Source: Eubacteriales bacterium
GTDB taxonomy: Bacteria > Bacillota > Clostridia > Oscillospirales > CAG-272
Length of the DNA: 33,027 nt
Assembly: GCA_045638405.1 (NCBI GenBank)
Contig: JAZUBG010000036.1
Span: forward strand, 1-33,027
Direction: 5' to 3'
Of this stretch, positions 18,496 to 31,536 are shown in pieces (positions within the stretch are counted from its first letter, which is position 1; every line of letters begins with the position of its first letter). The notes below the pieces were generated by a model that did not search any database, was not told where the DNA came from, and was given only the letters and a program-made list of their open reading frames with translations. The position numbers and the translations under genes were made by a program.

Positions 18496-19458
18496 TTACT
18501 CTTCGTAAATCTTCGTAATTCCGGAGCGATGATGACCGAGTCGCTCTGAGACCTCTCGTCTTGCTTGTTCCGCATTCATTCCACGGGTAATAAGTCTTTC
18601 TTCGGCTTTTTGCGCGTAGGTGTGCCGTATTGAATGCCAACCGTATCCACTATCTGCTCTCTCTTTCTTGCCTTCTTTGATTTGACTCTTCCGATCGGGA
18701 TCCAAAATTTCGTCAATATGATTGCTCATCCAATTGGTCAAAGCGGTTTTCACCCTCTTTACGCTGTTCTTGTGATTATCGCAGAACAAATAATTGCTTG
18801 ACTTTTTCCCGTCCGCCTTGGCAATATTTAAAATCTTTTGCAGCACTATGACTTGCTCTTCCGTATCAAGCGGAATATCTCTTGCCTGACCGCCTTTTCC
18901 GTTGGGAATGTGTAACTGTTTTGATTCAAGAGCTTCTTCCAATTGATAGATTCTTAATGTGACAAGCTCATTTTTTCGCAGACCAAAATGGTAAACGATA
19001 TATGCACCAAACACTACGCCACGTCTGTCTCCGCTATTTGCGATATCTACCATTTTCGTCATTTCACTGTCAAGGAAGCCCTTGTTGTACTTGCCGACCT
19101 CTCTCTTCTCCAAATCCAGCTTCTTGTTCTCCGGCAGCTTGTTCTTACACTTTGAATGTTTGTGCCAAAATCGAATGGCGGACAGCTCGGTCATAATATA
19201 CGATGCACTTTTCCCATTTGCCTTAAGAAAATCAACGTAGGCAAAAATATGCTTGGCAGAAACATTGTTAACATTCTCAAGACGAAAATCTCTTGCGAGG
19301 AATTTTGCAAAGCGGTCTTCAAGCGCAGGGTGATAACGCCTTCTTGTTTCAATTGATCCATTGTTGCAGTTATCAATATCACGCTTGAACTGAACGGCAA
19401 GGTTGTTCGCCATATTCACCTGGGTCTCGGTCAATTCATACTTAATCTGAACGCCCAT
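18496..19458 (-). CDS. Tyrosine recombinase-superfamily protein (SAM-like core-binding + catalytic domain)
   Basis: Intact R (FGLR), K (GKGG), HSIRH, LGH and C-terminal Y (TKIY). RBS AAGGAGG before ATG 19458. Confidence 0.9.
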   Translation of the reverse strand: MGVQIKYELTETQVNMANNLAVQFKRDIDNCNNGSIETRRRYHPALEDRFAKFLARDFRLENVNNVSAKHIFAYVDFLKANGKSASYIMTELSAIRFWHKHSKCKNKLPENKKLDLEKREVGKYNKGFLDSEMTKMVDIANSGDRRGVVFGAYIVYHFGLRKNELVTLRIYQLEEALESKQLHIPNGKGGQARDIPLDTEEQVIVLQKILNIAKADGKKSSNYLFCDNHKNSVKRVKTALTNWMSNHIDEILDPDRKSQIKEGKKERADSGYGWHSIRHTYAQKAEERLITRGMNAEQARREVSERLGHHRSGITKIYEE

Positions 19459-19488
19459 AGGCCTTTCACCTCCTTTCTGTAAATCTTT

Positions 19489-19516
19489 CAAACGAAAATT
19501 CCAATATTTTCGTTTG
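19489..19516. promoter_or_regulatory. Inverted-repeat operator candidate upstream of the tyrosine recombinase
   Basis: CAAACGAAAAT-6 bp-ATTTTCGTTTG. Confidence 0.55.
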
Positions 19517-20247: not shown

Positions 20248-20602
20248 AATGAAGGTGAGTACAGCGGATATAATCCGGCGCATACCTGCCACGTGACAGG
20301 CGTCAGATACTCGCGTACTGACAGCGCAGTGCCGTATACTGTAACTGTTTACAGCGCCTCCTTAATTCGGTCGACGGCAAGGATTTCATTTACCGTTGGA
20401 AATCCGGGAAACCTCGGCTGTGCCCTTTGTCGCACAGAGACAGCGGTTAAATTGACCGTGCCGCACACGGTTGACTGCTTGGCAGATCTTTTGCTTTGGA
20501 TGTGGGAGTACCTCTGTAATCCACCTTTTCATTCACAAGCCGCAGTCTGCTGTGAACCGTCATGTTGCCGTGTTACTTGGATTTGAACATTGCAGGCAAC
20601 AT
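20248..20602 (+). other. Multi-hairpin structured non-coding element (ncRNA or ssDNA origin candidate)
   Basis: A run of short stems; possible closing helix AATGAAGGTG / CACCTTTTCATT. Read by eye, not folded computationally. Confidence 0.4.
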
Positions 20603-20625
20603 TTTCTTGGGATTTGTCCTTTCAT
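20560..20625 (-). CDS. Possible 21-aa Cys-rich small ORF
   Basis: GAAGGAGG RBS then MKGQIPRKCCLQCSNPSNTAT*. Confidence 0.3.
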   Translation of the reverse strand: MKGQIPRKCCLQCSNPSNTAT

Positions 20626-21020
20626 TTGAATTCCTCCTTCATTGTCATAAATATATTTTGACCCCGTAACAAGCTCCTTGCTTGTCGGAGAACAAAAACA
20701 AGGTACAAAAAAGCACTTACCCGAAGATAAGTGCTGCTGTTGCTGTATGCGGAAGGAAACACATAACTTCGAAAGTTCTACTAAGTTTTGTTTTTGAATG
20801 CTTCCTTCATATTTTTAAGCTCATATATAATATGATCGATTTTGAGGCAATCGTCAAGGGTGGATACAAATTTTTCTAAGAAATTTTAAAACGTGGCTTG
20901 TTCAATAATTGATTGCTTTTTTAGCTAGTAGAAAATATCGCTAACTAAATTTGATAGCACCCGTCAATGAGAAGATGATACAATACTCGCCACTTTTCAA
21001 TATCTTTTTACAATTTACTA

Positions 21021-21059
21021 TTGAAATATTGTTATAAATATGTTATAATGATGTTATAA
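21021..21059 (+). promoter_or_regulatory. Promoter of the R-M operon overlapped by three phased TGTTATAA repeats
   Basis: TTGAAA-17 bp-TATAAT; TGTTATAA at 21030, 21041 and 21052 (11-bp period). Confidence 0.7.
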
Positions 21060-21083
21060 TCAATCGCGCTGAGAGGTGTAACA

Positions 21084-21287
21084 ATGACATTTGCCGAAAA
21101 GATGCAGGCTGTTAGAAAACAGTTGTTCTTAAGCCAAGAAGCTATAGCAAAAGAACTTGGTGTTTCTTTTGCAACGGTGAACCGTTGGGAAAAAGGAAAA
21201 TGTGAGCCGAGTTATAAGGCACAAAAAGCCTTTAACGACTTATGTGAGAAACATAATATAGACGTTACTTCACTTGTCGATAACTAA
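21084..21287 (+). CDS. Xre-family HTH regulator (controller-like)
   Basis: LSQEAIAKELGVSFATVNRWEKGK..P; first gene of the R-M operon. Confidence 0.9.
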   Translation: MTFAEKMQAVRKQLFLSQEAIAKELGVSFATVNRWEKGKCEPSYKAQKAFNDLCEKHNIDVTSLVDN

Positions 21288-21288
21288 T

Positions 21289-21699
21289 ATGGAAAAGACA
21301 AAAGAACAAATCAGCTACAATATGCAACAAGTTAAAAATAAAGATTCAAAGATCGAAGTCTTGTTGCGTAAAGAATTATGGTCACGCGGTATTCGTTACA
21401 GAAAGAACGTAAACCACATATACGGTAAGCCTGATATTGTATTCATAGGCAAAAAGGTTGCCGTCTTTTGTGACAGCGAATTTTGGCACGGATACAATTG
21501 GGAACAACGAAAGAACGATTTCAAATCGCACCAAGAATTTTGGATACCGAAGATCGAACGTAACATAAAGCGAGACGCCGAAGTAACGGCAAAACTCGAA
21601 TCCGAAGGATGGACGGTACTCCGTTTTTGGGGCAATGATATCAAAAAGAACACGGCGCAATGCGCAGATATAATTGAAAAGGCGGTATATTCAAAATGA
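21289..21699 (+). CDS. vsr: Very short patch repair endonuclease
   Basis: SYNMQQVK.KDSKIE, GKPDIVF, FCDSEFWHG, FWIPKIERN..RD, GWTVLRFW. Confidence 0.93.
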   Translation: MEKTKEQISYNMQQVKNKDSKIEVLLRKELWSRGIRYRKNVNHIYGKPDIVFIGKKVAVFCDSEFWHGYNWEQRKNDFKSHQEFWIPKIERNIKRDAEVTAKLESEGWTVLRFWGNDIKKNTAQCADIIEKAVYSK

Positions 21700-23408
21700 A
21701 TCAGTTGAAATCTGTAGATTTATTCGCCGGTATTGGTGGGATCCGGCTCGGCTTTGACAGAGCCTTCGGTGACAGTATTGACACTGTGTTTGTATGCGAA
21801 TGGGATGAAAACGCACAGAAAACCTACAAAGCAAACTTTAACGATAATTTTGCAATCGCAGGTGATATAACCAAAATTGACGAGAAGGATGTCCCCGAGT
21901 TTGACATCTGTCTCGCAGGATTCCCTTGTCAGGCGTTCAGCCTTGCAGGACAGCGTATGGGCTTCGAAGACAACTATAAAGGTATGTGCCGCGGTACGCT
22001 ATTTATGGACGTGGCTCGTATCTGTGAGTACCACAAACCAAAAGTAATCTTCTGCGAAAATGTAAAGGGGCTCGTTATCCACGATAGAGGAAGAACCTTC
22101 AATATTATTTGCAAAACCTTTGAAGATCTTGGATACAGGGTGTTCCATAAAGTTTTAAACAGCAAGAATTTCGGAGTTCCACAGAACAGGGAAAGAATTT
22201 ATATCGTGGCTTTCAGAAATGATATTGCTCCCGAAAACTTTGTATTTCCCGAAATTACCGATGACACCAAGCGATTGCGTGATATTCGCGAAGAAAATTC
22301 TGTCCCCGCAAAATATTATTTGAGTGATGTGTACGTAGAAACGCTGCGTAAGCACAAAGCACGTCACGAATCTAAGGGCAATGGTTTCGGTTACGAAATC
22401 CGTGATTGGAGTGATATAGCAGGTGCTATAGTGTGCGGAGGCATGGGGAGAGAGAGAAACCTTGTGATTGATAAGCGCCAACAGGATCTTACACCTACCA
22501 CCCACATTAAAGGAAATATCAACAAGGAAGGCATCCGAAAAATGACTCCCCGTGAATGGGCACGTTTGCAGGGGTTCCCGGATAGTTTTGACTTACCTCT
22601 TGCCGATACACATCTATATAAACAATTTGGCAATAGTGTAACTGTAAATGTAATAGAAGCTATCGCCAAAGAGATAAAAAAAGTGCTTGATGCACATTCG
22701 AAAAATGGTACTCCCCCAGCTACCAAAAAACGAACTTCGGGGACGAGCATTTTGAAGAAGTATCTTGAAGAACATGTTGGTGAAGAGATACCGTTGGATA
22801 CTTTAAATACCATTTGCGGTGATGCCGGATTGCACCATTGGGACAGAGTTATTCGAAATCTTATACAGCAAGAAGGCTACGATATTGAGAACAAAAAAGG
22901 TGAATGGTATAAATTGCGCTCTTTAACCAAAAATCCCGTCAAAAGCAAACGTTCGTATATAAGCAAAAAGCTGAAATATATGGTGTTTGAAAGAGATAAC
23001 TTTACTTGTCAAGCCTGCGGTAAAAATATACGAGACGACAAGATTAAACTAAGCCCTGACCATATCATTCCTGTTGATTGGGGCGGAGACACAACCCTTG
23101 ACAATCTTCAGGCACTATGTACCGAATGTAATGAAGGTAAACAAGCTTGGGTCGACGGCGAAGATAACGCTATTATGAAAAAAGTAAGTTTGCAAACAAG
23201 TGCAAAAATGAGGTTGAAGGTGTATTTTGAATCACACCCCAATGAAGAAATTCCCGTGGATCGGTTATCGGTTGTTGCCAAAACGCGGGAATGGACACGT
23301 TCTATCAGGTATTTACGCTCTGAATATGGACTAAATATCGAATACAGACCTGCAAATAAAAATTCAAACAGATTGACAGATACTTACATCTTTTTGAAGG
23401 AGGAATAG
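21696..23408 (+). CDS. C5 cytosine methyltransferase (M.HpaII-like) fused to a wHTH-HNH-wHTH endonuclease module
   Basis: FAGIGG, FPCQ, ENV, QNRER, YKQFGNSV. TRD (LRKHKARHESKGNGFGY..GGMGRERNLVID) closely matches M.HpaII as recalled. After a short linker: CQACG..PDHIIP..GG..DNLQALCTECN. Confidence 0.88.
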   Translation: MNQLKSVDLFAGIGGIRLGFDRAFGDSIDTVFVCEWDENAQKTYKANFNDNFAIAGDITKIDEKDVPEFDICLAGFPCQAFSLAGQRMGFEDNYKGMCRGTLFMDVARICEYHKPKVIFCENVKGLVIHDRGRTFNIICKTFEDLGYRVFHKVLNSKNFGVPQNRERIYIVAFRNDIAPENFVFPEITDDTKRLRDIREENSVPAKYYLSDVYVETLRKHKARHESKGNGFGYEIRDWSDIAGAIVCGGMGRERNLVIDKRQQDLTPTTHIKGNINKEGIRKMTPREWARLQGFPDSFDLPLADTHLYKQFGNSVTVNVIEAIAKEIKKVLDAHSKNGTPPATKKRTSGTSILKKYLEEHVGEEIPLDTLNTICGDAGLHHWDRVIRNLIQQEGYDIENKKGEWYKLRSLTKNPVKSKRSYISKKLKYMVFERDNFTCQACGKNIRDDKIKLSPDHIIPVDWGGDTTLDNLQALCTECNEGKQAWVDGEDNAIMKKVSLQTSAKMRLKVYFESHPNEEIPVDRLSVVAKTREWTRSIRYLRSEYGLNIEYRPANKNSNRLTDTYIFLKEE

Positions 23409-23410
23409 TT

Positions 23411-24070
23411 ATGGCCAGTGCAAAAGAAAAAATGAAGATATATTTACTTAATCATGTTGGAGAGGATGTTTCAAGAGAAACTCTTCGTGAAGTAGCAGGA
23501 AATATCCAAGATTGGCAACGTTCGTTAAGACAGTTGCGTCAGGAAACGGGACTTGACATCGTTCCAACACGAACAGGATATATTTTGACGTCAGATGTTC
23601 CCGTTAATGAACCGCAAATTCGCAGACCGATAGATGCAAGATTAAAATATGCCGTACTGCAAAAAGATAACAGTACTTGTCAAAGATGCGGTGCCAATAT
23701 TCAAAACACCCCTAACGTGAAGTTGGTAATTGACCACAAAGTGCCGGTTGATCTCGGTGGAGCAACAACGATAGATAACTTGTGGACTCTGTGCGAAGAC
23801 TGCAACGGCGGCAAGAAGGCTTTCTTTACCGATGAAAACGCTGATGCGGTTAAAGAGATTATGCGAATGGACAGTGCTGCCAAACGTCTTAAAGCATATT
23901 TCGAATTGTATCCAAATGTCGTCATTGAACCGATAAAACTTTCCACAATAGCTAATGTTCGAGATTGGGAAAGAACTTTGAGATTGGTTCGTGCTAAATA
24001 CAACATGCAAATTGATTGGATCAGACCTAACGAGGAATATCGTATGGGCGGATATATTTACAGAGAATGA
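23411..24070 (+). CDS. HNH endonuclease, wHTH-HNH-wHTH, paralog of the fused module
   Basis: CQRCG..IDHKVP..GG..DNLWTLCEDCN flanked by two SA..L..Y......W.R.LR repeats resembling the R.KpnI N-terminal domain. Confidence 0.88.
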   Translation: MASAKEKMKIYLLNHVGEDVSRETLREVAGNIQDWQRSLRQLRQETGLDIVPTRTGYILTSDVPVNEPQIRRPIDARLKYAVLQKDNSTCQRCGANIQNTPNVKLVIDHKVPVDLGGATTIDNLWTLCEDCNGGKKAFFTDENADAVKEIMRMDSAAKRLKAYFELYPNVVIEPIKLSTIANVRDWERTLRLVRAKYNMQIDWIRPNEEYRMGGYIYRE

Positions 24071-25002
24071 TTGTGGGCAGTCTTTTTTCGGGTATTGGTG
24101 GCATTGAACTTGGATTTGAACAGGCTGGATTCGAAATTGCTTGGGCTAACGATATTGATTCGGAGGCATGCAAAACTTACCGCCATAACTTTCCGAAAAC
24201 ACATCTCATAGAGGGGGATGTGCTTGACGTCAATCCTCATACACTCCCTGATATAGATGTACTTGTTGCGGGATTTCCGTGTCAGCCGTTCTCAATTATG
24301 GGATATCGGCGCGGATTCAAAGATCCTCGCGGAAATTTGTTTTTTGAGATTTCTCGTTTCATTGACATTAAGCGTCCGCGAGTAGTATTCCTCGAAAACG
24401 TGCAAAACCTTATGGAACACGATAACGGCAAGACGTTCCTTGTTATTTACAATACTTTGGCACAGTTCGGTTACTCCGTCAAGTACAAGGTTATAAATGC
24501 TACCGACATTAATATTCCTCAAAATCGTGCGCGTATTTTCATCGTTGCGTTTCTTAATATAGAGGATTGTGACCACTTTTCCTTCCCCGAAACAATACCG
24601 CTTGAAGCGACAATTGAGGATATTATTGACCGCAGCATAAAGCACGACGATATTTATTATTACGACTATAGTAGCCGATATTTTAAGGAGCTTGATTCGA
24701 AAATTGTCGATAAGACGGGTATTTACAGAATTGACGATAGCGGTGTCGCAATGCGCAAATGGGAAATCTGCCCCACGTTGAAAGCCAATATGGGAACTTA
24801 CCCTGACCGTATTCCAATCATCCGTGACGATTTCGGTATCCGCAAGCTTACACCTATGGAATGCCTTGCATTCCAAGGCTATCCAAAGACCTATTCTTTC
24901 AAGGGGATTTCTCTTGAAAGTGCATACAAACAATGCGGAAATACGGTGTGTGTTCCTGTTATAAAAGGAATTGCAAAAGCAATATATCTAAGCATTAAGT
25001 AG
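24067..25002 (+). CDS. Second C5 cytosine methyltransferase
   Basis: FSGIGG, FPCQ, ENV, QNRAR, RKLTP.EC..FQG, YKQCGN; ATGA overlap with the HNH gene. Confidence 0.92.
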   Translation: MIVGSLFSGIGGIELGFEQAGFEIAWANDIDSEACKTYRHNFPKTHLIEGDVLDVNPHTLPDIDVLVAGFPCQPFSIMGYRRGFKDPRGNLFFEISRFIDIKRPRVVFLENVQNLMEHDNGKTFLVIYNTLAQFGYSVKYKVINATDINIPQNRARIFIVAFLNIEDCDHFSFPETIPLEATIEDIIDRSIKHDDIYYYDYSSRYFKELDSKIVDKTGIYRIDDSGVAMRKWEICPTLKANMGTYPDRIPIIRDDFGIRKLTPMECLAFQGYPKTYSFKGISLESAYKQCGNTVCVPVIKGIAKAIYLSIK

Positions 25003-25033
25003 GACTATTAGTTTAATTTAGGAGGCATTGAAA

Positions 25034-26428
25034 ATGGAGCGACGTACAATTCCAATTGATACGCTATTACTATCTGATGGTAACCCAAGGTTGGATCCTT
25101 CGTTGGGAGAAGATGAAGCGATCCGTAATATGGTATTAGACCAAAATGATAAATTGTTTGAACTCGCTTCAGATATCGTAGAGCACGGATTAAATCCATT
25201 GGATACGATAGGTGTATTTCCTTCGGAAACATACGACGGATTTTATGAGGTTGGCGAAGGCAACCGTCGTATGTGTGCTCTGAAACTCCTTATTACTCCG
25301 GAACGTATTCGTGAAATCAATCCCAATTTGCACTCTAAATTTTCCACATTATCGCAATCCTTTAAAGCTCCCGATTCTATTGAGGTCGGAGTTTTTAACG
25401 ATGAAAAGTCTATGCGCCATTGGATGGAAATACGCCATATGGGTGAGCAAGGAGGAAAGGGATTATCCAAGTGGAATTCTGTTCAAAAAGCTCGGTTCAA
25501 CAGAATGCAAACAGGATCAGATGCTCTATTGGATTTTTGGGATTGGATGATTGCAAACAATATACTTTCTAACGAAAAAATATTCCGTGTGACCAAAACA
25601 AATTGGCAGCGTATTCTTCGTGAAAAATATTTTCCTTTTTTGAAAATTCAGTATAATGGGGTGTATTCTGTTTTACCAACCGATATTGACATTTTTAAAG
25701 AACGAATACAAGCAGTTCAGCAAGCGTTAGATGGGCAAACTGTAGCTATCGTTTATGATCAAGAAAGAATAGAAAACTTTTTTAATTTGATTTCCAATAC
25801 GCTATATGGAAAGCCATATCAAGATGTAGTAAAGGATGAATCCGAACAAATATCCATTTCCCCGGCTGTAACGCCAATTGAAGACGGTAGAAAAGAAACC
25901 GGATCAAACTTAATCAATCATAGTTTTGAAGGTGTTTCTGATCAGATGGAGGTTTATCCTTCAACTGATAACACAACAAGTACGATTCCTACACAAACAA
26001 TGGGTCGAGATGTTTTTAATGGTTGTTCTACAATAATTCCTTACCAATATTCAATTCGCACGAGTAATATGCGATTAAATAAGATTATCAACGAACTCAA
26101 ACGTCTTGATGCCAGTGTTTATCCCAATGCTTGCGGTACTCTTTTGAGAACTTTATTCGAATTGTCAGCCAAAGTTTATTTGGAAAAGCAGGATGGCAGA
26201 GATCACACCAGTGATGAATTCCAACAGGTGATTAGGCAAGCGGCAAATGAGCTGCGAAACAAAGGATGTATTGATAACAGCCAACATTCAGCTATATTTA
26301 GTGATATTGATAATTTAAGAAAGATATTTAATGGATATATGCATAATACGGAATCGTATCCGAGTAGCGAAGCACTCAAAAACTTCTTTAAGTGTCATCG
26401 CCATTTTATTCAAGAGTGTTTAAAGTAA
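25034..26428 (+). CDS. ParB/sulfiredoxin-like N-terminal domain + C-terminal HEPN-like domain protein
   Basis: L...NPR and EGNRR..ALKLL; low-complexity linker; NACGTLLRTLFE ... RKIFNGYMHN. AGGAGG RBS favours ATG 25034. Confidence 0.7.
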   Translation: MERRTIPIDTLLLSDGNPRLDPSLGEDEAIRNMVLDQNDKLFELASDIVEHGLNPLDTIGVFPSETYDGFYEVGEGNRRMCALKLLITPERIREINPNLHSKFSTLSQSFKAPDSIEVGVFNDEKSMRHWMEIRHMGEQGGKGLSKWNSVQKARFNRMQTGSDALLDFWDWMIANNILSNEKIFRVTKTNWQRILREKYFPFLKIQYNGVYSVLPTDIDIFKERIQAVQQALDGQTVAIVYDQERIENFFNLISNTLYGKPYQDVVKDESEQISISPAVTPIEDGRKETGSNLINHSFEGVSDQMEVYPSTDNTTSTIPTQTMGRDVFNGCSTIIPYQYSIRTSNMRLNKIINELKRLDASVYPNACGTLLRTLFELSAKVYLEKQDGRDHTSDEFQQVIRQAANELRNKGCIDNSQHSAIFSDIDNLRKIFNGYMHNTESYPSSEALKNFFKCHRHFIQECLK

Positions 26429-26443
26429 AAGGAAGGACATATC

Positions 26444-28093
26444 GTGGTTAAGAGTATAAATATTGTTCAGTATCGAAAGTTGAAAGACTTGTCATTAAAT
26501 TTTTCTAAAAAGATTAATGCTATTTCTGGAACCAATGGTACGTGCAAAACGTCTTTGTTGCATTTGTTGGGAAATTCTCTGCAAGCACCAACTAAGGGGT
26601 GTTCTTGGATAACCGATGATAAATGTTTGCCTATTATTAAATCGGTGAATAATGTAACAAATCCCAAGGTTGAAAGTCTTACGCGAGGGGATCAAACCTA
26701 TAATGATCCTGCACACGGTATAAAAGGTTCGCTGTTTTCGGTTGATTATTATGGCGCAGAAACCTTGGACTTCAGACGTCACAATTCAACCCAAATGACA
26801 CGCTATGCTGTTAAGCCGAAGTATCAGCCCGGAACAAAAGATACATTACCGCATTGCCCTGTGATTTACTTAGGTCTTTCGAGATTAGTACCCTTCGGGG
26901 AATTTCAAAATGATGATGCTTTGTCGACTATCAAAAAGAAATTACCCCAAACTTACCAAGATGAAATCGCGTCACTGTATAAGAAGTTTACCAATTACAC
27001 CATCGCATTCAATGACACAAAACAAATGGGTGACATTAAGGTGAGAAGTGAATTTTCCAGCAATATAGAAGGTATTGATTCCAATACTATTTCTGCCGGA
27101 GAAGACAACCTAAGTATAATACTAACGGCATTGATCTCGTTGAAATATTACTATCAATCAATTAACTCTACAAAAGAGGTGGAAAGTGTTCTCTTAATAG
27201 ATGAAATGGATGCAACCTTGCACCCAGCTTTTCAAATTAAGCTGTTGAATCTCTTTCGCGAAATGTCGGATTTGTACAAGATTCAGATTGTATTTACAAC
27301 GCATAGTATGTCTTTGCTTGAAGAGATGCTTTCTAAAAAAGACAACGTATTGTATTTGGTCGATAATTTAACTTCGGTATTCCTTATGGAAGAACCCGAT
27401 ATCTATAAAATCAAAATGCACTTGCAATCTCTAACGCAGGAAGATATTTATGAAGACAAGGTAATTCCTTTATTCACCGAAGATGATGAAGCACGTTGCT
27501 TGCTTGATTTGCTATTTGATTACTATCAAAAAACGTATCCCGAATTTAGGAATATAAGTGGATTGTTTCATAAAGTTCTTACAAATATCAGTGCGGAAAA
27601 TTTAACAGGTATATTCACAGACGGGAAACTGTTACATACGACAATGCGTTCCATTTGTCTTTTGGATGGAGATCATAAATCCGATATAACTAATTTCATC
27701 GTTGCACTTCCCGGTAAAGCTTCACCTGAAACGGTTTTGATTGGTTATGCAGAAAAACTCTATAGTGAAGATGATGCTTTCTGGAGAGAGAGAACCATTG
27801 TCAATAAAGGCTATACCAAAACTTATTATATAAACAATATCAAGAATGCGGTTGATGAATTTGAAGCACAAATTGTTAGCTTACACGAAAATGGAGAATC
27901 GGCAAAGGGCAAAAGACGTAAATTTTATAAAGAGTTGTTTAACGATAATAAAACCTTTTTCACACTACTGTTTAAGCATTGGATTCATAATCCAATAAAT
28001 AAATCAGAAGTAGATAGGTTTTATAATGAGTTGCACATTGTATTTTTGAAAGTGGCTCCGTATCACGAGATTAATCCGAAAGAATGGGCATGA
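26444..28093 (+). CDS. ABC-type ATPase with C-terminal TOPRIM-like domain (OLD/AriA-like clade)
   Basis: Walker A GTNGTCKT, signature ISAGE, Walker B LIDEMDATLHP, FTTHS; then FTED and LDGD acidic motifs. Confidence 0.8.
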   Translation: MVKSINIVQYRKLKDLSLNFSKKINAISGTNGTCKTSLLHLLGNSLQAPTKGCSWITDDKCLPIIKSVNNVTNPKVESLTRGDQTYNDPAHGIKGSLFSVDYYGAETLDFRRHNSTQMTRYAVKPKYQPGTKDTLPHCPVIYLGLSRLVPFGEFQNDDALSTIKKKLPQTYQDEIASLYKKFTNYTIAFNDTKQMGDIKVRSEFSSNIEGIDSNTISAGEDNLSIILTALISLKYYYQSINSTKEVESVLLIDEMDATLHPAFQIKLLNLFREMSDLYKIQIVFTTHSMSLLEEMLSKKDNVLYLVDNLTSVFLMEEPDIYKIKMHLQSLTQEDIYEDKVIPLFTEDDEARCLLDLLFDYYQKTYPEFRNISGLFHKVLTNISAENLTGIFTDGKLLHTTMRSICLLDGDHKSDITNFIVALPGKASPETVLIGYAEKLYSEDDAFWRERTIVNKGYTKTYYINNIKNAVDEFEAQIVSLHENGESAKGKRRKFYKELFNDNKTFFTLLFKHWIHNPINKSEVDRFYNELHIVFLKVAPYHEINPKEWA

Positions 28094-28113
28094 ATATGAG
28101 AGGAGGGATTGAT

Positions 28114-28944
28114 TTGCCAATAACACCATCACCATTGAGATATCCCGGTGGTAAAACCAAATTGTATGAGTATGTTAAGTCTATTATAAAGGCAAACAAT
28201 CTAATAGGAGAAACTTACATTGAACCTTTTGCGGGTGGCGCAGGTCTTGCTTTGAAACTTCTATTGAACGGAGATGTTAAGAAGATTGTTATAAACGATT
28301 TGGATCCTGCAATATATGCATTTTGGTATGTTGTGTTAAACCAAACAGACGATATTTGCAACTTTATAACGACCGTTCCCGTAACATTAGATGAATGGGA
28401 TAAGCAACACGATATCTATGTCAATCAAGCCGCACATACTCAATTGGAACTTGCCCAAGCGACATTTTTCCTTAATCGAACCAATATTTCTGGTGTGATT
28501 ACCGGAGGTATGATTGGCGGAAGAAAACAAGAGGGAAAATATAAGATAGACGCTCGTTTCAATAGAACGCAACTCGTTGAGAGAATACGAAAAATAGCAA
28601 ATTATTCTGATAAAATTGACCTTTATAATTTAGATGCGATTGATTTTATAAAACCCGAGGTCTTAGGACATTACTACAAAGTTTTTATTAATTTTGATCC
28701 ACCTTATGTCGATAAGGGCGGTGAATTATACAAGAACTCGTTCACCGAAGAAGATCATCGAATTTTAAGAGATCATATCGCTCAATGCAATCGCAAATGG
28801 ATTGTAACATATGATATATGTGACTTGGTTGCAGAGCTATATTCTTCATATCGTGGTGGTACAGTGGATATTTATTATAGTGCCAACAAAGCTAAAAAAG
28901 CTCAAGAATATATTTTCTTTAGTGACAACTTGATTTTACCGTAA
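28114..28944 (+). CDS. D12-class (Dam-like) N6-adenine DNA methyltransferase
   Basis: SPLRYPGGK, YIEPFAGGAG, INDLD, DPPY. TTG start at 28114 after AGGAGG; alternatives at 28084 and 28096. Confidence 0.9.
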   Translation: MPITPSPLRYPGGKTKLYEYVKSIIKANNLIGETYIEPFAGGAGLALKLLLNGDVKKIVINDLDPAIYAFWYVVLNQTDDICNFITTVPVTLDEWDKQHDIYVNQAAHTQLELAQATFFLNRTNISGVITGGMIGGRKQEGKYKIDARFNRTQLVERIRKIANYSDKIDLYNLDAIDFIKPEVLGHYYKVFINFDPPYVDKGGELYKNSFTEEDHRILRDHIAQCNRKWIVTYDICDLVAELYSSYRGGTVDIYYSANKAKKAQEYIFFSDNLILP

Positions 28945-28978
28945 TGTGAATTGGTTGATCGAAATAAATCTAATATAT

Positions 28979-29022
28979 AGCCACCATCAAACGCTTCATT
29001 ATATGATGGTGGCTTTTGTTTT
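28979..29022 (+). terminator. Intrinsic terminator closing the defence gene run
   Basis: AGCCACCATCA / TGATGGTGGCT then TTTGTTTT. Confidence 0.8.
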
Positions 29023-29088
29023 TAGTTTAACAAAACGTTTCGTCACGAAAATTCTATGCATATTTCGTTTATATAATCTTCTTCCGTA

Positions 29089-29117
29089 TTGACTTTACGC
29101 TGATTTTGTGTTATAAT
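29089..29117 (+). promoter_or_regulatory. Sigma-A promoter of Xre-SWIM-integrase
   Basis: TTGACT-17 bp-TATAAT with TG. Confidence 0.72.
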
Positions 29118-29147
29118 ATCTATATACGAAAAGCGAGGTGCATTTTA

Positions 29148-29516
29148 ATGACGAAAATTATTGGCAAACGACTGAGAGAACTGCGTGTAGAAAACCGTTA
29201 CTCCCAGCAGCAGATTGCAGAAATGTGTGGATCGACCCAGGCAACTATCGGAAGATACGAGCAGGGACTTGTTGACGTTGCTCTGGACAAGCTATTTTGG
29301 TACGCAGAAACCTTTGAGGTGTCCTTGGATTATATTTTTGGAAGAACAGATGATCCCAAGGGGCATCTGTACGAAAAAGACGAGCCGTCCTTGCCTTCCG
29401 ATGCAAGTATTAATGACTTTATAGAGTTCTGCTTTGATCCTGCATCTCCCGCCAACGCCAAGCTAAAAAAGATGCTTGTGCAGTTGATGCAAGATAGCAC
29501 AAAGCAACCCGATTAA
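29148..29516 (+). CDS. Xre-family HTH repressor
   Basis: IGKRLRELR..YSQQQIAE..GSTQATIGRYEQG...VSLDYIFGRTD; GAGGTG RBS before ATG 29148. Confidence 0.9.
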   Translation: MTKIIGKRLRELRVENRYSQQQIAEMCGSTQATIGRYEQGLVDVALDKLFWYAETFEVSLDYIFGRTDDPKGHLYEKDEPSLPSDASINDFIEFCFDPASPANAKLKKMLVQLMQDSTKQPD

Positions 29517-29543
29517 TTTTAGAACACAGTGAGAGGTAAAGAT

Positions 29544-30011
29544 ATGGGACTGATTGAATGTACAAGCGGTGCATCTCTTTGGCGCGGATATGATTATTAC
29601 AAAGGGAACAAGGTAAAGAATTTTCAAAAAATCAACGATACTCAGTATGCTGCCGATGTTGTCGGCACAATGAGCGAACCATATAAGGTACTTATTGATG
29701 TTGCACATCCAAGAACGTCAAAATGCAACTGCCCTCATGCAGATGGTAAACGCATCGTGTGTAAGCATATGATGGCGGTATATTTCACTGCCTTTCCGGA
29801 AGAAGCTCAGAGAATCTATGATGAAATGATTGCCTATCAAGAAGAGGAAGAAAAACGCGAAGAAGAATTAACGGATAGGATCTGCCAATACGTTTGGAAA
29901 ATGAAGAAAAGCGAAGCCCAACAAGCTTTACTTGAATTGCTATTTGATGGACCCGAATGGCAATTTGATAGATTTGTAAGAGAACACGATTTGGAGGACG
30001 ATTATTATTAA
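29544..30011 (+). CDS. SWIM zinc-finger protein
   Basis: RGYDYY, V.G...Y.V, CNCP...CKHMMA (CxC..CxH). Confidence 0.85.
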   Translation: MGLIECTSGASLWRGYDYYKGNKVKNFQKINDTQYAADVVGTMSEPYKVLIDVAHPRTSKCNCPHADGKRIVCKHMMAVYFTAFPEEAQRIYDEMIAYQEEEEKREEELTDRICQYVWKMKKSEAQQALLELLFDGPEWQFDRFVREHDLEDDYY

Positions 30012-30033: not shown

Positions 30034-31536
30034 TTGAAAGCCGTAATTTACGCTCGATATTCATCGGACAGTCAGCGTGAAGAAAGTATAGATGGTCAGC
30101 TCCGTGAGTGTATGGAATTTGCCAAATACAACGAAATGACCGTTGTTAACACCTATATTGACCGCGCACTGTCTGCAAAAACAGATAATCGTCCTGAGTT
30201 TCAGCGAATGATTAAAGATAGCTACAAATGCAACTTTGATGTGGTGATCGTATGGAAGTTAGACCGTTTTGCACGTAATCGCTATGACTCAGCGCACTAC
30301 AAGGCACTTCTTAAAAAGAACCGTGTGCGTGTGGTATCTGCTAAAGAAACCATTTCTGAAGGCGCAGAAGGCATTCTGCTCGAATCCTTGCTTGAAGGCT
30401 ATGCAGAATACTACTCCGTAGAACTTGCCGAGAAAGTCAAACGAGGACTTACAGAGAACGCTCTGAAAGGTGTTTGGAACGGCGGGACCGTTCCTTTCGG
30501 ATATATAGTTAACAAGCAAACTCAGAAGTTGGAAATCGATCCACTTGCAGAAGATGTTGTTCGTGAAATCTTTGATATGGCTTATGACGGTAAGACCGTC
30601 AAAGAGATTCATCGTTATTTAGAAGAAAAGAACATCACGCGTTCCAACGGGAAACCGCTCCGCTATAATGCAGTACGCTATATTCTCTCCAATCGTACGT
30701 ACATAGGCGAATACAATCATTCGGGTGTATTGATTGAAGATGGTGTTCCCGCAATCATTGATAAAGCTTGTTTTGAAAGAGTTCAAGGCGAATTAAAAAA
30801 GAACTCCAAAGCACCGGCACGTCACACAGCAGACGATGATTATCTTCTCACAACGAAATTGTTCTGCGGTAAATGCGGGGCAATGATGGTAGCACAGGCA
30901 GGCACAAGCCACACAGGAAAAGTCCACCGCTATTATGCTTGTGTTCGTCAGAAAAAGCATAAGTGTGATAAAAAGATGATGCACAAGGAAAAGCTTGAAA
31001 ACTTTATCGTGTACAAAACGATGGAGATTTTGAATAACGACTCTGTAATTGAAGAACTCTCGGCTCTGCTCTATAATCTGCAGTACAACGAAAGCACCAT
31101 TCTTCCACAGTTGGAGCAACAGTTGAAAGAACGCGAAAAAGAGATCGAAAACATTGTAAATGTTATTCAGCAAGGAATTGCTTCTCAGGCGTTGGTAAAA
31201 CGGCTCGGAGAACTTGAAGCATCAAAGAACGAAATCAGCGACGCCATTATCAAAGAGCAAATTCAGTCACCGACCTACACTCAGGACGAATACAGAATGG
31301 CTCTTACAAACTATCGAAAGATAGACCTTACTCAGCAAGACGGCAAAAGAAAAATCATCGACACATTCATCAATGCGATTTATGTATACGATGATCATTT
31401 CAAAATCGTATATAACGGTAATAACAAAGAGGAAACAGTTAGTCTTGAAGCACTCGAAAACAGTTCAACCTTGTTTTCATCCGGTGCAAAAAACGAAAAA
31501 GACCGTGTTAGCGGTCTTTTTCGTTTTTACGGGTGA
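30034..31536 (+). CDS. Large serine recombinase (integrase)
   Basis: YARYSS catalytic motif, RPEFQRM, KLDRFARN, GG.VPFGY, zinc ribbon LFCGKCG..YYAC..C, coiled coil; TTG start. Its 3' end spans attR. Confidence 0.95.
   Translation: MKAVIYARYSSDSQREESIDGQLRECMEFAKYNEMTVVNTYIDRALSAKTDNRPEFQRMIKDSYKCNFDVVIVWKLDRFARNRYDSAHYKALLKKNRVRVVSAKETISEGAEGILLESLLEGYAEYYSVELAEKVKRGLTENALKGVWNGGTVPFGYIVNKQTQKLEIDPLAEDVVREIFDMAYDGKTVKEIHRYLEEKNITRSNGKPLRYNAVRYILSNRTYIGEYNHSGVLIEDGVPAIIDKACFERVQGELKKNSKAPARHTADDDYLLTTKLFCGKCGAMMVAQAGTSHTGKVHRYYACVRQKKHKCDKKMMHKEKLENFIVYKTMEILNNDSVIEELSALLYNLQYNESTILPQLEQQLKEREKEIENIVNVIQQGIASQALVKRLGELEASKNEISDAIIKEQIQSPTYTQDEYRMALTNYRKIDLTQQDGKRKIIDTFINAIYVYDDHFKIVYNGNNKEETVSLEALENSSTLFSSGAKNEKDRVSGLFRFYG
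31489..31528. terminator. Original tRNA-Leu terminator hairpin, now at the island right end
   Basis: AAAAACGAAAAAGACCG / CGGTCTTTTTCGTTTTT, followed by CGGGTGACAGG, the reverse complement of tRNA bases 18082-18092. Confidence 0.8.

Follow-up and report, generated by a model that had tools for sequence, protein, structure and literature searches.

A cytosine-C5 methylase fused to an HNH nuclease, and its free nuclease paralogue, in a predicted Type II restriction-modification cassette

When a DNA methylase gene continues without interruption into a nuclease gene, and is followed by a second, homologous nuclease and a second methylase, the question arises which of these parts belong to one restriction enzyme and how they came to be joined. 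Such a locus lies in a stretch of 33,027 nucleotides (nt) from an Eubacteriales bacterium of the Oscillospirales (GenBank assembly GCA_045638405.1, contig JAZUBG010000036.1), hereafter the window. Five plus-strand open reading frames (ORFs) between 21084 and 25002, in which neighbors overlap or are separated by at most 2 nt, form a cassette of the order helix-turn-helix (HTH) - Vsr - M1::alpha - beta - M2, where M1 denotes the fused C5 cytosine methylase, alpha the HNH module fused to it, beta the free HNH module and M2 the second methylase. The methylase and nuclease genes are adjacent and co-oriented both in the window and in its relatives, which is how the genes of a Type II restriction-modification (R-M) system are arranged, and the region is very probably a classical Type II R-M cassette. 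Its components, namely Type II R-M, HNH nuclease, Vsr and C5 methylase, are known; it stands apart by the internally duplicated winged-HTH-HNH-winged-HTH (wHTH-HNH-wHTH) protomer, the pairing of two paralogues under one methylase and the natural fusion with a 5-methylcytosine (m5C) methylase. The pair and the fusion are real and recurrent, and the cassette is phage-borne and experimentally tractable. Its central features are the following:

21696..23408 (+): M1::alpha fusion protein, 570 residues, a single ORF with a C5 cytosine methylase and a wHTH-HNH-wHTH module
21708..22682 (+): M1 methylase domain, residues 5-329 (PF00145, E 5.9e-99)
22692..22733 (+): fusion linker AHSKNGTPPATKKR, residues 333-346
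22839..22862 (+): recognition helix WDRVIRNL of the alpha N-terminal winged helix
23007..23159 (+): alpha HNH catalytic core CxxC...DH...N...CxxCN, residues 438-488 (PF14279, E 6e-12; PF01844, E 1.4e-10)
23292..23315 (+): recognition helix WTRSIRYL of the alpha C-terminal winged helix
23411..24070 (+): beta, free wHTH-HNH-wHTH nuclease, 219 residues
23513..23536 (+): beta N-terminal recognition helix WQRSLRQL
23678..23818 (+): beta HNH catalytic core, residues 90-136 (E 2.1e-12)
23966..23989 (+): beta C-terminal recognition helix WERTLRLV
24067..25002 (+): M2, second C5 cytosine methylase, 311 residues (PF00145, E 2.6e-89)

An initial annotation, made from the letters of the window, had described a C5 methylase-HNH fusion with a linker at about 22692-22736, a second wHTH-HNH-wHTH module in the next gene, intact DH..N..CxxCN sites in both modules, four differing recognition helices and a second C5 methylase. 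Each of these elements was recovered: positions 21696-23408 constitute one uninterrupted ORF of 570 residues with PF00145 and HNH domains, the linker occupies 22692-22733, the next gene encodes a 219-residue paralogue of alpha, an alignment of 27 family members places the catalytic residues intact in both modules, all four helices are present at the positions given, and the second methylase (PF00145) fills 24067-25002. Methylase and nuclease domains thus share a single chain in M1::alpha, the domain organization of Type IIC enzymes, to which it would be assigned on its predicted domains.

The borders of this fusion can be compared with those of its unfused relatives. Free-standing M1 homologues of 332-349 residues are abundant (83-91% identity) and end 3-8 residues past the KKVLD motif, while in the fusion M1 is followed by about 10 linker residues and then by sequence that matches the free alpha protein P0021 from about its residue 4. 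As the ends of the free M1 homologues and of P0021 flank the linker, the fusion looks like the product of a lost M1 stop codon together with a short spacer in a Vsr-M1-alpha arrangement. A tight junction of this kind is seen in locus L086 of the alpha sister clade, where the M1 and HNH matches lie 1 nt apart.

The initial annotation had asked whether the fusion recurs and had named assembly error as a reason to abandon it. A search with the alpha part against proteins of 313-998 residues (320 candidates scored, of which four passed E 1e-3) recovered the same fusion in two of the four, namely P0001, with 570 residues, whose M1 part is 97% and whose alpha part is 94% identical to the window's, and P0002, with 573 residues and 86% identity overall (492/573), which has a 3-residue indel in the methylase half and retains the frame and most of the linker. 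In addition, a contig of 1361 nt from an independent metagenome run (X5) covers 21794-23153 with 116 substitutions (about 91% identity) and no gap across the junction. The alpha-beta junction is bridged by other contigs in runs X1, X2 and X5; none of the runs held more than 0.25 of the sampled words, and the parts uncovered in X2 and X6 are not evidence. The retention of the frame over 14% divergence, the recurrence and the bridging contig argue that the fusion is no assembly artefact. That it might nevertheless be an assembly or sequencing error, or else a recent and functionless dead end of stop-codon loss, would be in keeping with its absence from all 18 other alpha-clade loci and with the lack of any protein of about 570 residues among the best 150 representatives; however, the two further protein clusters, one of them in frame at 86% identity despite the indel, and the gap-free contig make this explanation very improbable, and as an artefact the fusion is largely refuted. 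It is confined to one shallow lineage, comprising the two protein clusters (86-97% identity) and the bridging metagenome contigs. On these comparisons it is highly likely that the fusion is both real and functional.

The two nuclease modules are 39% identical over 208 residues (E 2e-49). In the alignment of 27 family members the residues C90, C93, H109, C128, C131, N132 and K135 (beta numbering) are invariant in 27/27, and D108 and N123 are kept in at least 90%; alpha and beta each carry all of the conserved catalytic and zinc residues. Both match PF01844 and PF14279 and have the catalytic histidine, the asparagines and the two CxxC pairs, which places them in the HNH (beta-beta-alpha-metal) superfamily. 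An AlphaFold2 model of beta built on the 27-sequence alignment reached a predicted local distance difference test score (pLDDT) of 93.0 and replaced an unusable model from the single sequence (pLDDT 40.9); the predicted order of elements is a winged helix, the beta-beta-alpha HNH core and another winged helix. The two winged helices are mutually homologous in a profile comparison (HHalign probability 99.2%, E 1.7e-19, 48 columns), though BLASTP of the N- against the C-terminal winged helix of beta gave no alignment, and their homology implies that the protomer is an internal duplication around one active site. The W-x-R-x-x-R core of both recognition helices is invariant in 27/27 sequences, and WDRVIRNL, WTRSIRYL, WQRSLRQL and WERTLRLV are each kept among their own orthologues. 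Foldseek searches of the PDB with the model matched the HNH core and the winged helices separately and left the whole wHTH-HNH-wHTH fold unmatched; the best match was McrA (E 4.1e-3, template modelling score 0.24), over the HNH core only. The architecture, as predicted, is without a solved counterpart.

An exhaustive, profile-free search of 1.84 billion representatives recovered 28 proteins at E <=1e-30, nearly all of 200-235 residues, indicating that the modules belong to a rare family of HNH proteins of about 215 residues. The 10/10 members scanned, alpha and beta included, match the PADLOC Type II restriction endonuclease (REase) model PDLC03478 best or only (E 1e-7 to 1.6e-16), the match covering the N-terminal winged helix and the HNH core and leaving the C-terminal winged helix uncovered; the enzyme behind this model may be KpnI. 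Searches of annotated atlases recovered generic names only ('HNH endonuclease', 'DNA cytosine methyltransferase').

To place the family in its genomic neighborhoods, the window's proteins were mapped onto 35 family loci from reference genomes and 80 from metagenomes. Single-gene members are found beside an M1-like C5 methylase and Vsr in L007, L008, L009 and L011 (records of Azovibrio, Flavobacterium, Bacillus and Salinimicrobium) and in L084-L086, beside a methylase without Vsr in L012, L013, L088 and L113, and beside Vsr alone in L010, where the contig end is reached. In environmental clades the neighbor is instead a PF01555 N6/N4 methylase in 4/4 neighbors tested, two of them with an N-terminal HTH. 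This change of methylase partner between clades, across many phyla, is the pattern of classical restriction enzymes and not that of methyl-dependent nucleases. Among the environmental clades paired with PF01555 are, for example, metagenome-assembled genomes (MAGs) of Dehalococcoidaceae and Brocadia, and the N-terminal domain of the two methylases is of the MerR/HTH_17 type. In L016 and L096 the HNH gene is followed by a gene of about 307 codons, and in L018 and L111 by one of 355-373.

Close to home the family is sparse: full-length members occur in 0/400 other genomes sampled from the same taxonomic family, where the HNH core alone is matched in 27 genomes, with the N-terminal winged helix in addition in one of the 27, and in 0/398 genomes scored from the same class, both surveys being samples and no proof of absence. 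In annotated collections members occur on one Priestia plasmid and one Blautia phage. The plasmid (L168, Priestia megaterium NZ_CP018877.1, 73459-82759) has a single member, 45% identical to beta; an annotated MspI-family restriction enzyme is encoded about 3.3 kb away, and the vicinity also includes a further HNH gene, a Vsr gene and a C5 methylase of 452 residues with only 25% identity to M1.

A maximum-likelihood tree of 52 family sequences separates alpha (support 100/98) and beta (100/100) into distinct clades. In the sister clade of alpha (P0009, L084-L088) the genes run Vsr-M1-HNH, with one HNH gene per system, and the M1 orthologue is 70-76% identical. Beta is nested among single-gene systems as well (L007-L010, support 98/95); the methylase of these shares about 55% identity with M1, and relative to these sisters the beta clade has a long stem branch (0.56). 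As the two are separate clades, each with single-gene relatives, the pair is a union of two lineages and not a recent tandem duplication, and both lineages appear to have worked with an M1-type methylase before they were paired. Beta lies directly 3' of alpha in 16/18 other alpha-clade loci, all unfused (L005, L006, L069-L075, L077-L081, L083 and L166), and of the remaining two, one contig ends 46 nt past alpha (L076) and the other has a truncated alpha remnant and no beta (L082). Two different genes with intact sites are thus encoded together, as would be expected of the subunits of a heteromeric enzyme. Among the 16 is a complete phage genome, that of Blautia phage NatCom_27009 (L166, PV036437.1, 726-3605), in which the cassette sits at the left end of the genome in the order Vsr-alpha-beta-M1, with identities to the window of 67% for alpha, 75% for beta and 75% for M1, and with the generic annotations 'endonuclease', two 'HNH endonuclease' and 'DNA methyltransferase'. 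Across L073/L077/L078 the ratio of nonsynonymous (dN) to synonymous (dS) substitution rates comes to 0.049 in alpha and to 0.033-0.034 in beta; in deeper pairs synonymous sites are mostly saturated, and dN/dS (omega) is about 0.06-0.08 in the computable pairs (alpha 6/36, beta 9/55). Strong purifying selection acts on the two genes.

M2 follows a different distribution. It is 34% identical to M1 and differs from it most in the target-reading region between the conserved blocks. In sequence searches of the PDB the conserved core of M1 and M2 matches M.HhaI, with the recognition domain aligned poorly or not at all; the target-recognition region of M1, a methylase that the initial annotation had labelled M.HpaII-like, is left unaligned against M.HhaI, the best match of its core, and no site can be assigned to M1 or M2 from the PDB. 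When C5 methylases were sought by tblastn with M1 and M2 as queries (E <=1e-5), a second one was found in 0/16 unfused alpha-beta loci, and none of the 16 has an M2 orthologue. The long-flank loci L005, L070, L071, L077, L078 and L166 each have exactly one C5 methylase, an M1 orthologue of 68-81% identity; two ORFs scanned downstream of M1 in L077 are not methylases, and in L069 M1 is reduced to a fragment of 42 residues after beta. Loci that lack M2 share recognition helices with the window, namely both beta helices in L071 and the N-terminal helix of alpha in L073. In the window's own lineage, contigs that reach from beta into M2 occur in X1, X2 and X5, three runs of as many studies, at 88-97% identity. 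Free-standing genes of the M2 type are very common (120 listed clusters at 81-90% identity, of 7825 matches), and the upstream neighbor of an M2 homologue in run X6 is a different one. M2 is accordingly a stable part of the window's lineage and not of the alpha-beta system generally, and judging from these loci alpha-beta probably does not require it.

What the cassette, which is taken to be mobile, does as a whole can be proposed on this basis. M1 would methylate C5 of a cytosine within the target site, Vsr would repair the T:G mismatches that arise by deamination of 5-methylcytosine, and alpha and beta would both cut the same site when it is unmethylated. Beta may be the core nuclease, as in the single-gene relatives, and alpha a co-inherited second catalytic subunit, either dependent or auxiliary, which assembles with beta into a mixed enzyme having four different reading heads and two active sites. 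Once M1 had lost its stop codon and the spacer in front of alpha was gone, alpha would be made only as the tail of the methylase; a possible benefit is that nuclease supply would be coupled to methylase supply and the methylase tethered to the nuclease. M2 would be an added methylase with a different target-recognition domain, dispensable for the alpha-beta nuclease.

For the relation between alpha and beta, a mixed hetero-oligomeric enzyme is the most likely single model, and it is put forward tentatively, at a little short of an even chance. The case for joint action is made by the constant adjacency and coupling of the two genes, their intact sites, the selection on both and the long stem branch of beta. 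Complex predictions of alpha with beta scored 0.47, 0.48 and 0.45, against 0.35 for a single unrelated-protein control, and are used neither for nor against binding. Several observations weigh against this model. Beta occurs without alpha in two genomes, a Lachnospiraceae MAG (L003/G401) and a Roseburia MAG (L004/G402), at L003:6001-6660 and L004:6001-6678, with ordinary genes of the chromosome as neighbors (in L003, for example, one for a chemotaxis receptor); these genomes have a Vsr-M1 pair of 75-76% identity on another contig and lack alpha altogether. The lone beta shows dN 0.060, dS 1.35 and dN/dS 0.044, that is, purifying selection, and is therefore probably active alone, just as the single-gene sister clades of both alpha and beta suggest that each ancestor was self-sufficient. 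Alpha is moreover damaged in three loci in which beta is intact or absent, by a nonsense codon inside the C-terminal recognition helix in L071 (6995-7681), by a 1.6-kb insertion in L083 (1334-3601) and by truncation after the HNH core, running into unrelated sequence, in L082 (134-541); damage to beta is confined to a frameshift in one short, low-coverage contig (L079), a possible assembly error that was not counted. A fusion limited to a shallow lineage could, for its part, be nearly neutral, and a characterized relative may exist, REBASE being outside the comparison.

These same observations are what would be expected if alpha and beta were two independent homodimeric enzymes of the same or overlapping specificity, both protected against by M1 and redundant with each other, for instance against phage inhibitors or for a wider context of cleavage. 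The single-gene R-M systems with M1-type methylases in both sister clades, the selection on the lone beta, the decay of alpha and the full catalytic set with two winged helices in each module all accord with this. However, beta is tightly coupled 3' of alpha in all the alpha-clade loci except the contig end and the remnant, the pairing outlasts synonymous saturation although pure redundancy should lose one copy more often, and the long stem branch sets beta apart from its single-gene sisters; two independent enzymes under one methylase are the chief competing model, and one we hold to be rather doubtful. The heterodimeric nuclease foreseen in the initial annotation is favored by the adjacency in every assessable alpha-clade locus and the purifying selection on both genes, and disfavored, as an obligate pair, by the lone beta and the single-gene sister clades. 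The further proposal that such a heterodimer acts on an asymmetric or degenerate site, whose strands or half-sites need M1 and M2 respectively, found no support in the comparison: it could draw on the translational coupling of M2 to beta and their linkage in three independent runs, on the differences among the four recognition helices and on the two methylases that, in the available portion of PMC4081073, generally accompany Type IIT heterodimers, but the absence of a second C5 methylase from the unfused loci, six of which have long flanks with an M1 orthologue as the sole C5 methylase, the sharing of the window's recognition helices by loci without M2, and the abundance of M2-type genes elsewhere, including the X6 homologue with another upstream neighbor, render it improbable. 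Still less credible is the alternative which the initial annotation had offered, that the HNH modules are modification-dependent, Type IV-like nucleases and the neighboring methylases serve another purpose. Among solved structures the methyl-dependent McrA is indeed the one that the HNH core matches best, over the core alone; yet the linkage to methylases in many phyla, with the class of methylase varying by clade, is the signature of a cognate R-M system, one member is covalently fused to a methylase, all scanned members match the PADLOC Type II model best or only, and, at odds with Type IV enzymes, the family is methylase-linked throughout and its non-HNH parts are winged helices. This leaves it hardly any likelihood.

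Returning to the mixed alpha-beta enzyme, its parts have parallels among characterized systems. HNH (beta-beta-alpha-metal) Type IIP restriction enzymes include KpnI, Hpy99I and PacI, which the present proteins resemble in combining an HNH core and a Cys4 zinc site in a small protein beside a cognate methylase, and from which they differ in being two paralogues instead of one gene and in having no whole-fold structural match. To our knowledge the heteromeric enzymes BslI, BbvCI and Bpu10I are not HNH enzymes. According to the accessible part of PMC4081073, BslI is an alpha2beta2 enzyme with a palindromic site that is best regarded as Type IIP, and BbvCI and Bpu10I are Type IIT heterodimers with two catalytic sites and usually two methylases. 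As far as described there, the likeness to all three lies in genes for two different, similar-sized subunits, here putative, side by side; the single C5 methylase of the general alpha-beta cassette brings it closer to BslI than to BbvCI or Bpu10I. Given that BslI is, on the same partial account, a heteromeric enzyme acting on a palindromic site, a mixed alpha-beta enzyme would have a precedent.

For the fusion the nearest comparison is RM.Eco29kI, an active enzyme that, in the excerpt of PMC3039593 available, was engineered by removing the stop and start codons between head-to-tail restriction and m5C modification genes. It is there set apart by its m5C methylase, 'while others contain m6A type MTases'. 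The others are regular Type IIC enzymes, m6A stands for N6-methyladenine, and the rows of Table 2 contained in that excerpt all list m6A methylases. M1::alpha is like Type IIC enzymes and RM.Eco29kI, so far as that excerpt describes them, in having restriction and modification domains in one polypeptide, and unlike them in being a natural fusion with an N-terminal m5C methylase, an HNH nuclease and an extra free paralogue. Vsr directly beside a C5 methylase recalls the Dcm-Vsr modules, and unlike most M1 homologues the one in the window has an HNH partner. Searches of full-text literature, with REBASE and supplementary files outside their range, returned no paper that deals with this family, and none describing an HNH restriction enzyme of heteromeric make-up or a naturally occurring m5C-methylase-HNH fusion, which does not prove that there is none.

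The locus may be viewed as a natural experiment in R-M evolution, in which two homologous enzymes of separate descent came to share one methylase and one of them was then fused to it. Bifunctional R-M enzymes are believed to originate by such fusion, and in the part of PMC3039593 at hand the m5C case is modelled only by engineering. If the hetero-oligomer is real, the heteromeric restriction enzymes would gain an HNH representative, and single histidine mutations could yield strand-specific nicking enzymes. For gut communities, the presence of the cassette on a Blautia phage and in a putative integrative defence island has implications for exclusion among phages and between phage and host. The most inclusive proposal, that M1::alpha and beta form one methylase-tethered hetero-oligomeric HNH complex with four winged-helix heads, spread by gut phages and integrative islands, is a conjecture that we consider somewhat unlikely in its entirety. 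Were it true, methylation would be in competition with cleavage inside one particle, the way it is in Type I/III systems, and, as far as found, no heteromeric HNH Type II enzyme and no natural m5C-methylase-nuclease fusion enzyme would precede it.

The front of the operon, upstream of the fusion gene, comprises three further features:

21021..21049 (+): candidate promoter-like site TTGAAA-17-TATAAT with an upstream TG, 11/12 consensus matches, ahead of the operon
21084..21287 (+): small HTH protein of 67 residues, a candidate controller (C) protein (PF01381 HTH_3, E 7.7e-09)
21274..21699 (+): Vsr very-short-patch repair endonuclease, 141 residues (PF03852, E 6.3e-25)

The promoter candidate is one of the two best in 20300-29300, where the total of such sites is not above the shuffled expectation. 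HTH genes precede the cassette also in L070 (PF13443) and L006 (PF01381). The Vsr protein scores 133 bits against TIGR00632 (cut-off 97.85), and its stop codon overlaps the start of M1 by 4 nt. Further downstream, a Shine-Dalgarno-like AAGGAGG lies within the 3' end of alpha ahead of the ATG of beta, and the ATG of M2 overlaps the beta stop codon (ATGA); M1::alpha, beta and M2 appear from these signals to be translationally coupled behind the HTH and Vsr genes. Among close M1 homologues there are also Vsr::M1 fusion proteins of 457-475 residues (P0176, P0207 and P0233, and the 457-residue ORF L071:8400-9773 on the minus strand), a second kind of gene fusion within the same module. In L070 and L071 alpha is immediately preceded by an ORF of 757-791 codons (L070:4714-6987 and L071:4568-6943), possibly a further defence gene; that of L070 encodes an AAA_13 ATPase (PF13166, E 2.5e-119).

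In the window the cassette lies in a stretch of low G+C content (0.35-0.43 versus 0.45-0.50) flanked by two recombinase genes:

18496..19491 (-): tyrosine integrase
30034..31536 (+): large serine recombinase

This recombinase-flanked, low-G+C stretch looks like an integrative defence island. It holds two defence systems, the second being a PD-Lambda-5-like system directly 3' of M2 (25028-28944, plus strand), with an A protein (E 5.2e-79) of 466 residues that has no Pfam match and a B protein resembling D12 methylases (E 1e-112), the two being separated by an extra gene for an AAA_15/PtuA-like ATPase of 549 residues. The same stretch also holds an XRE-type HTH gene at 29106-29516 and a SWIM zinc-finger gene at 29529-30011.

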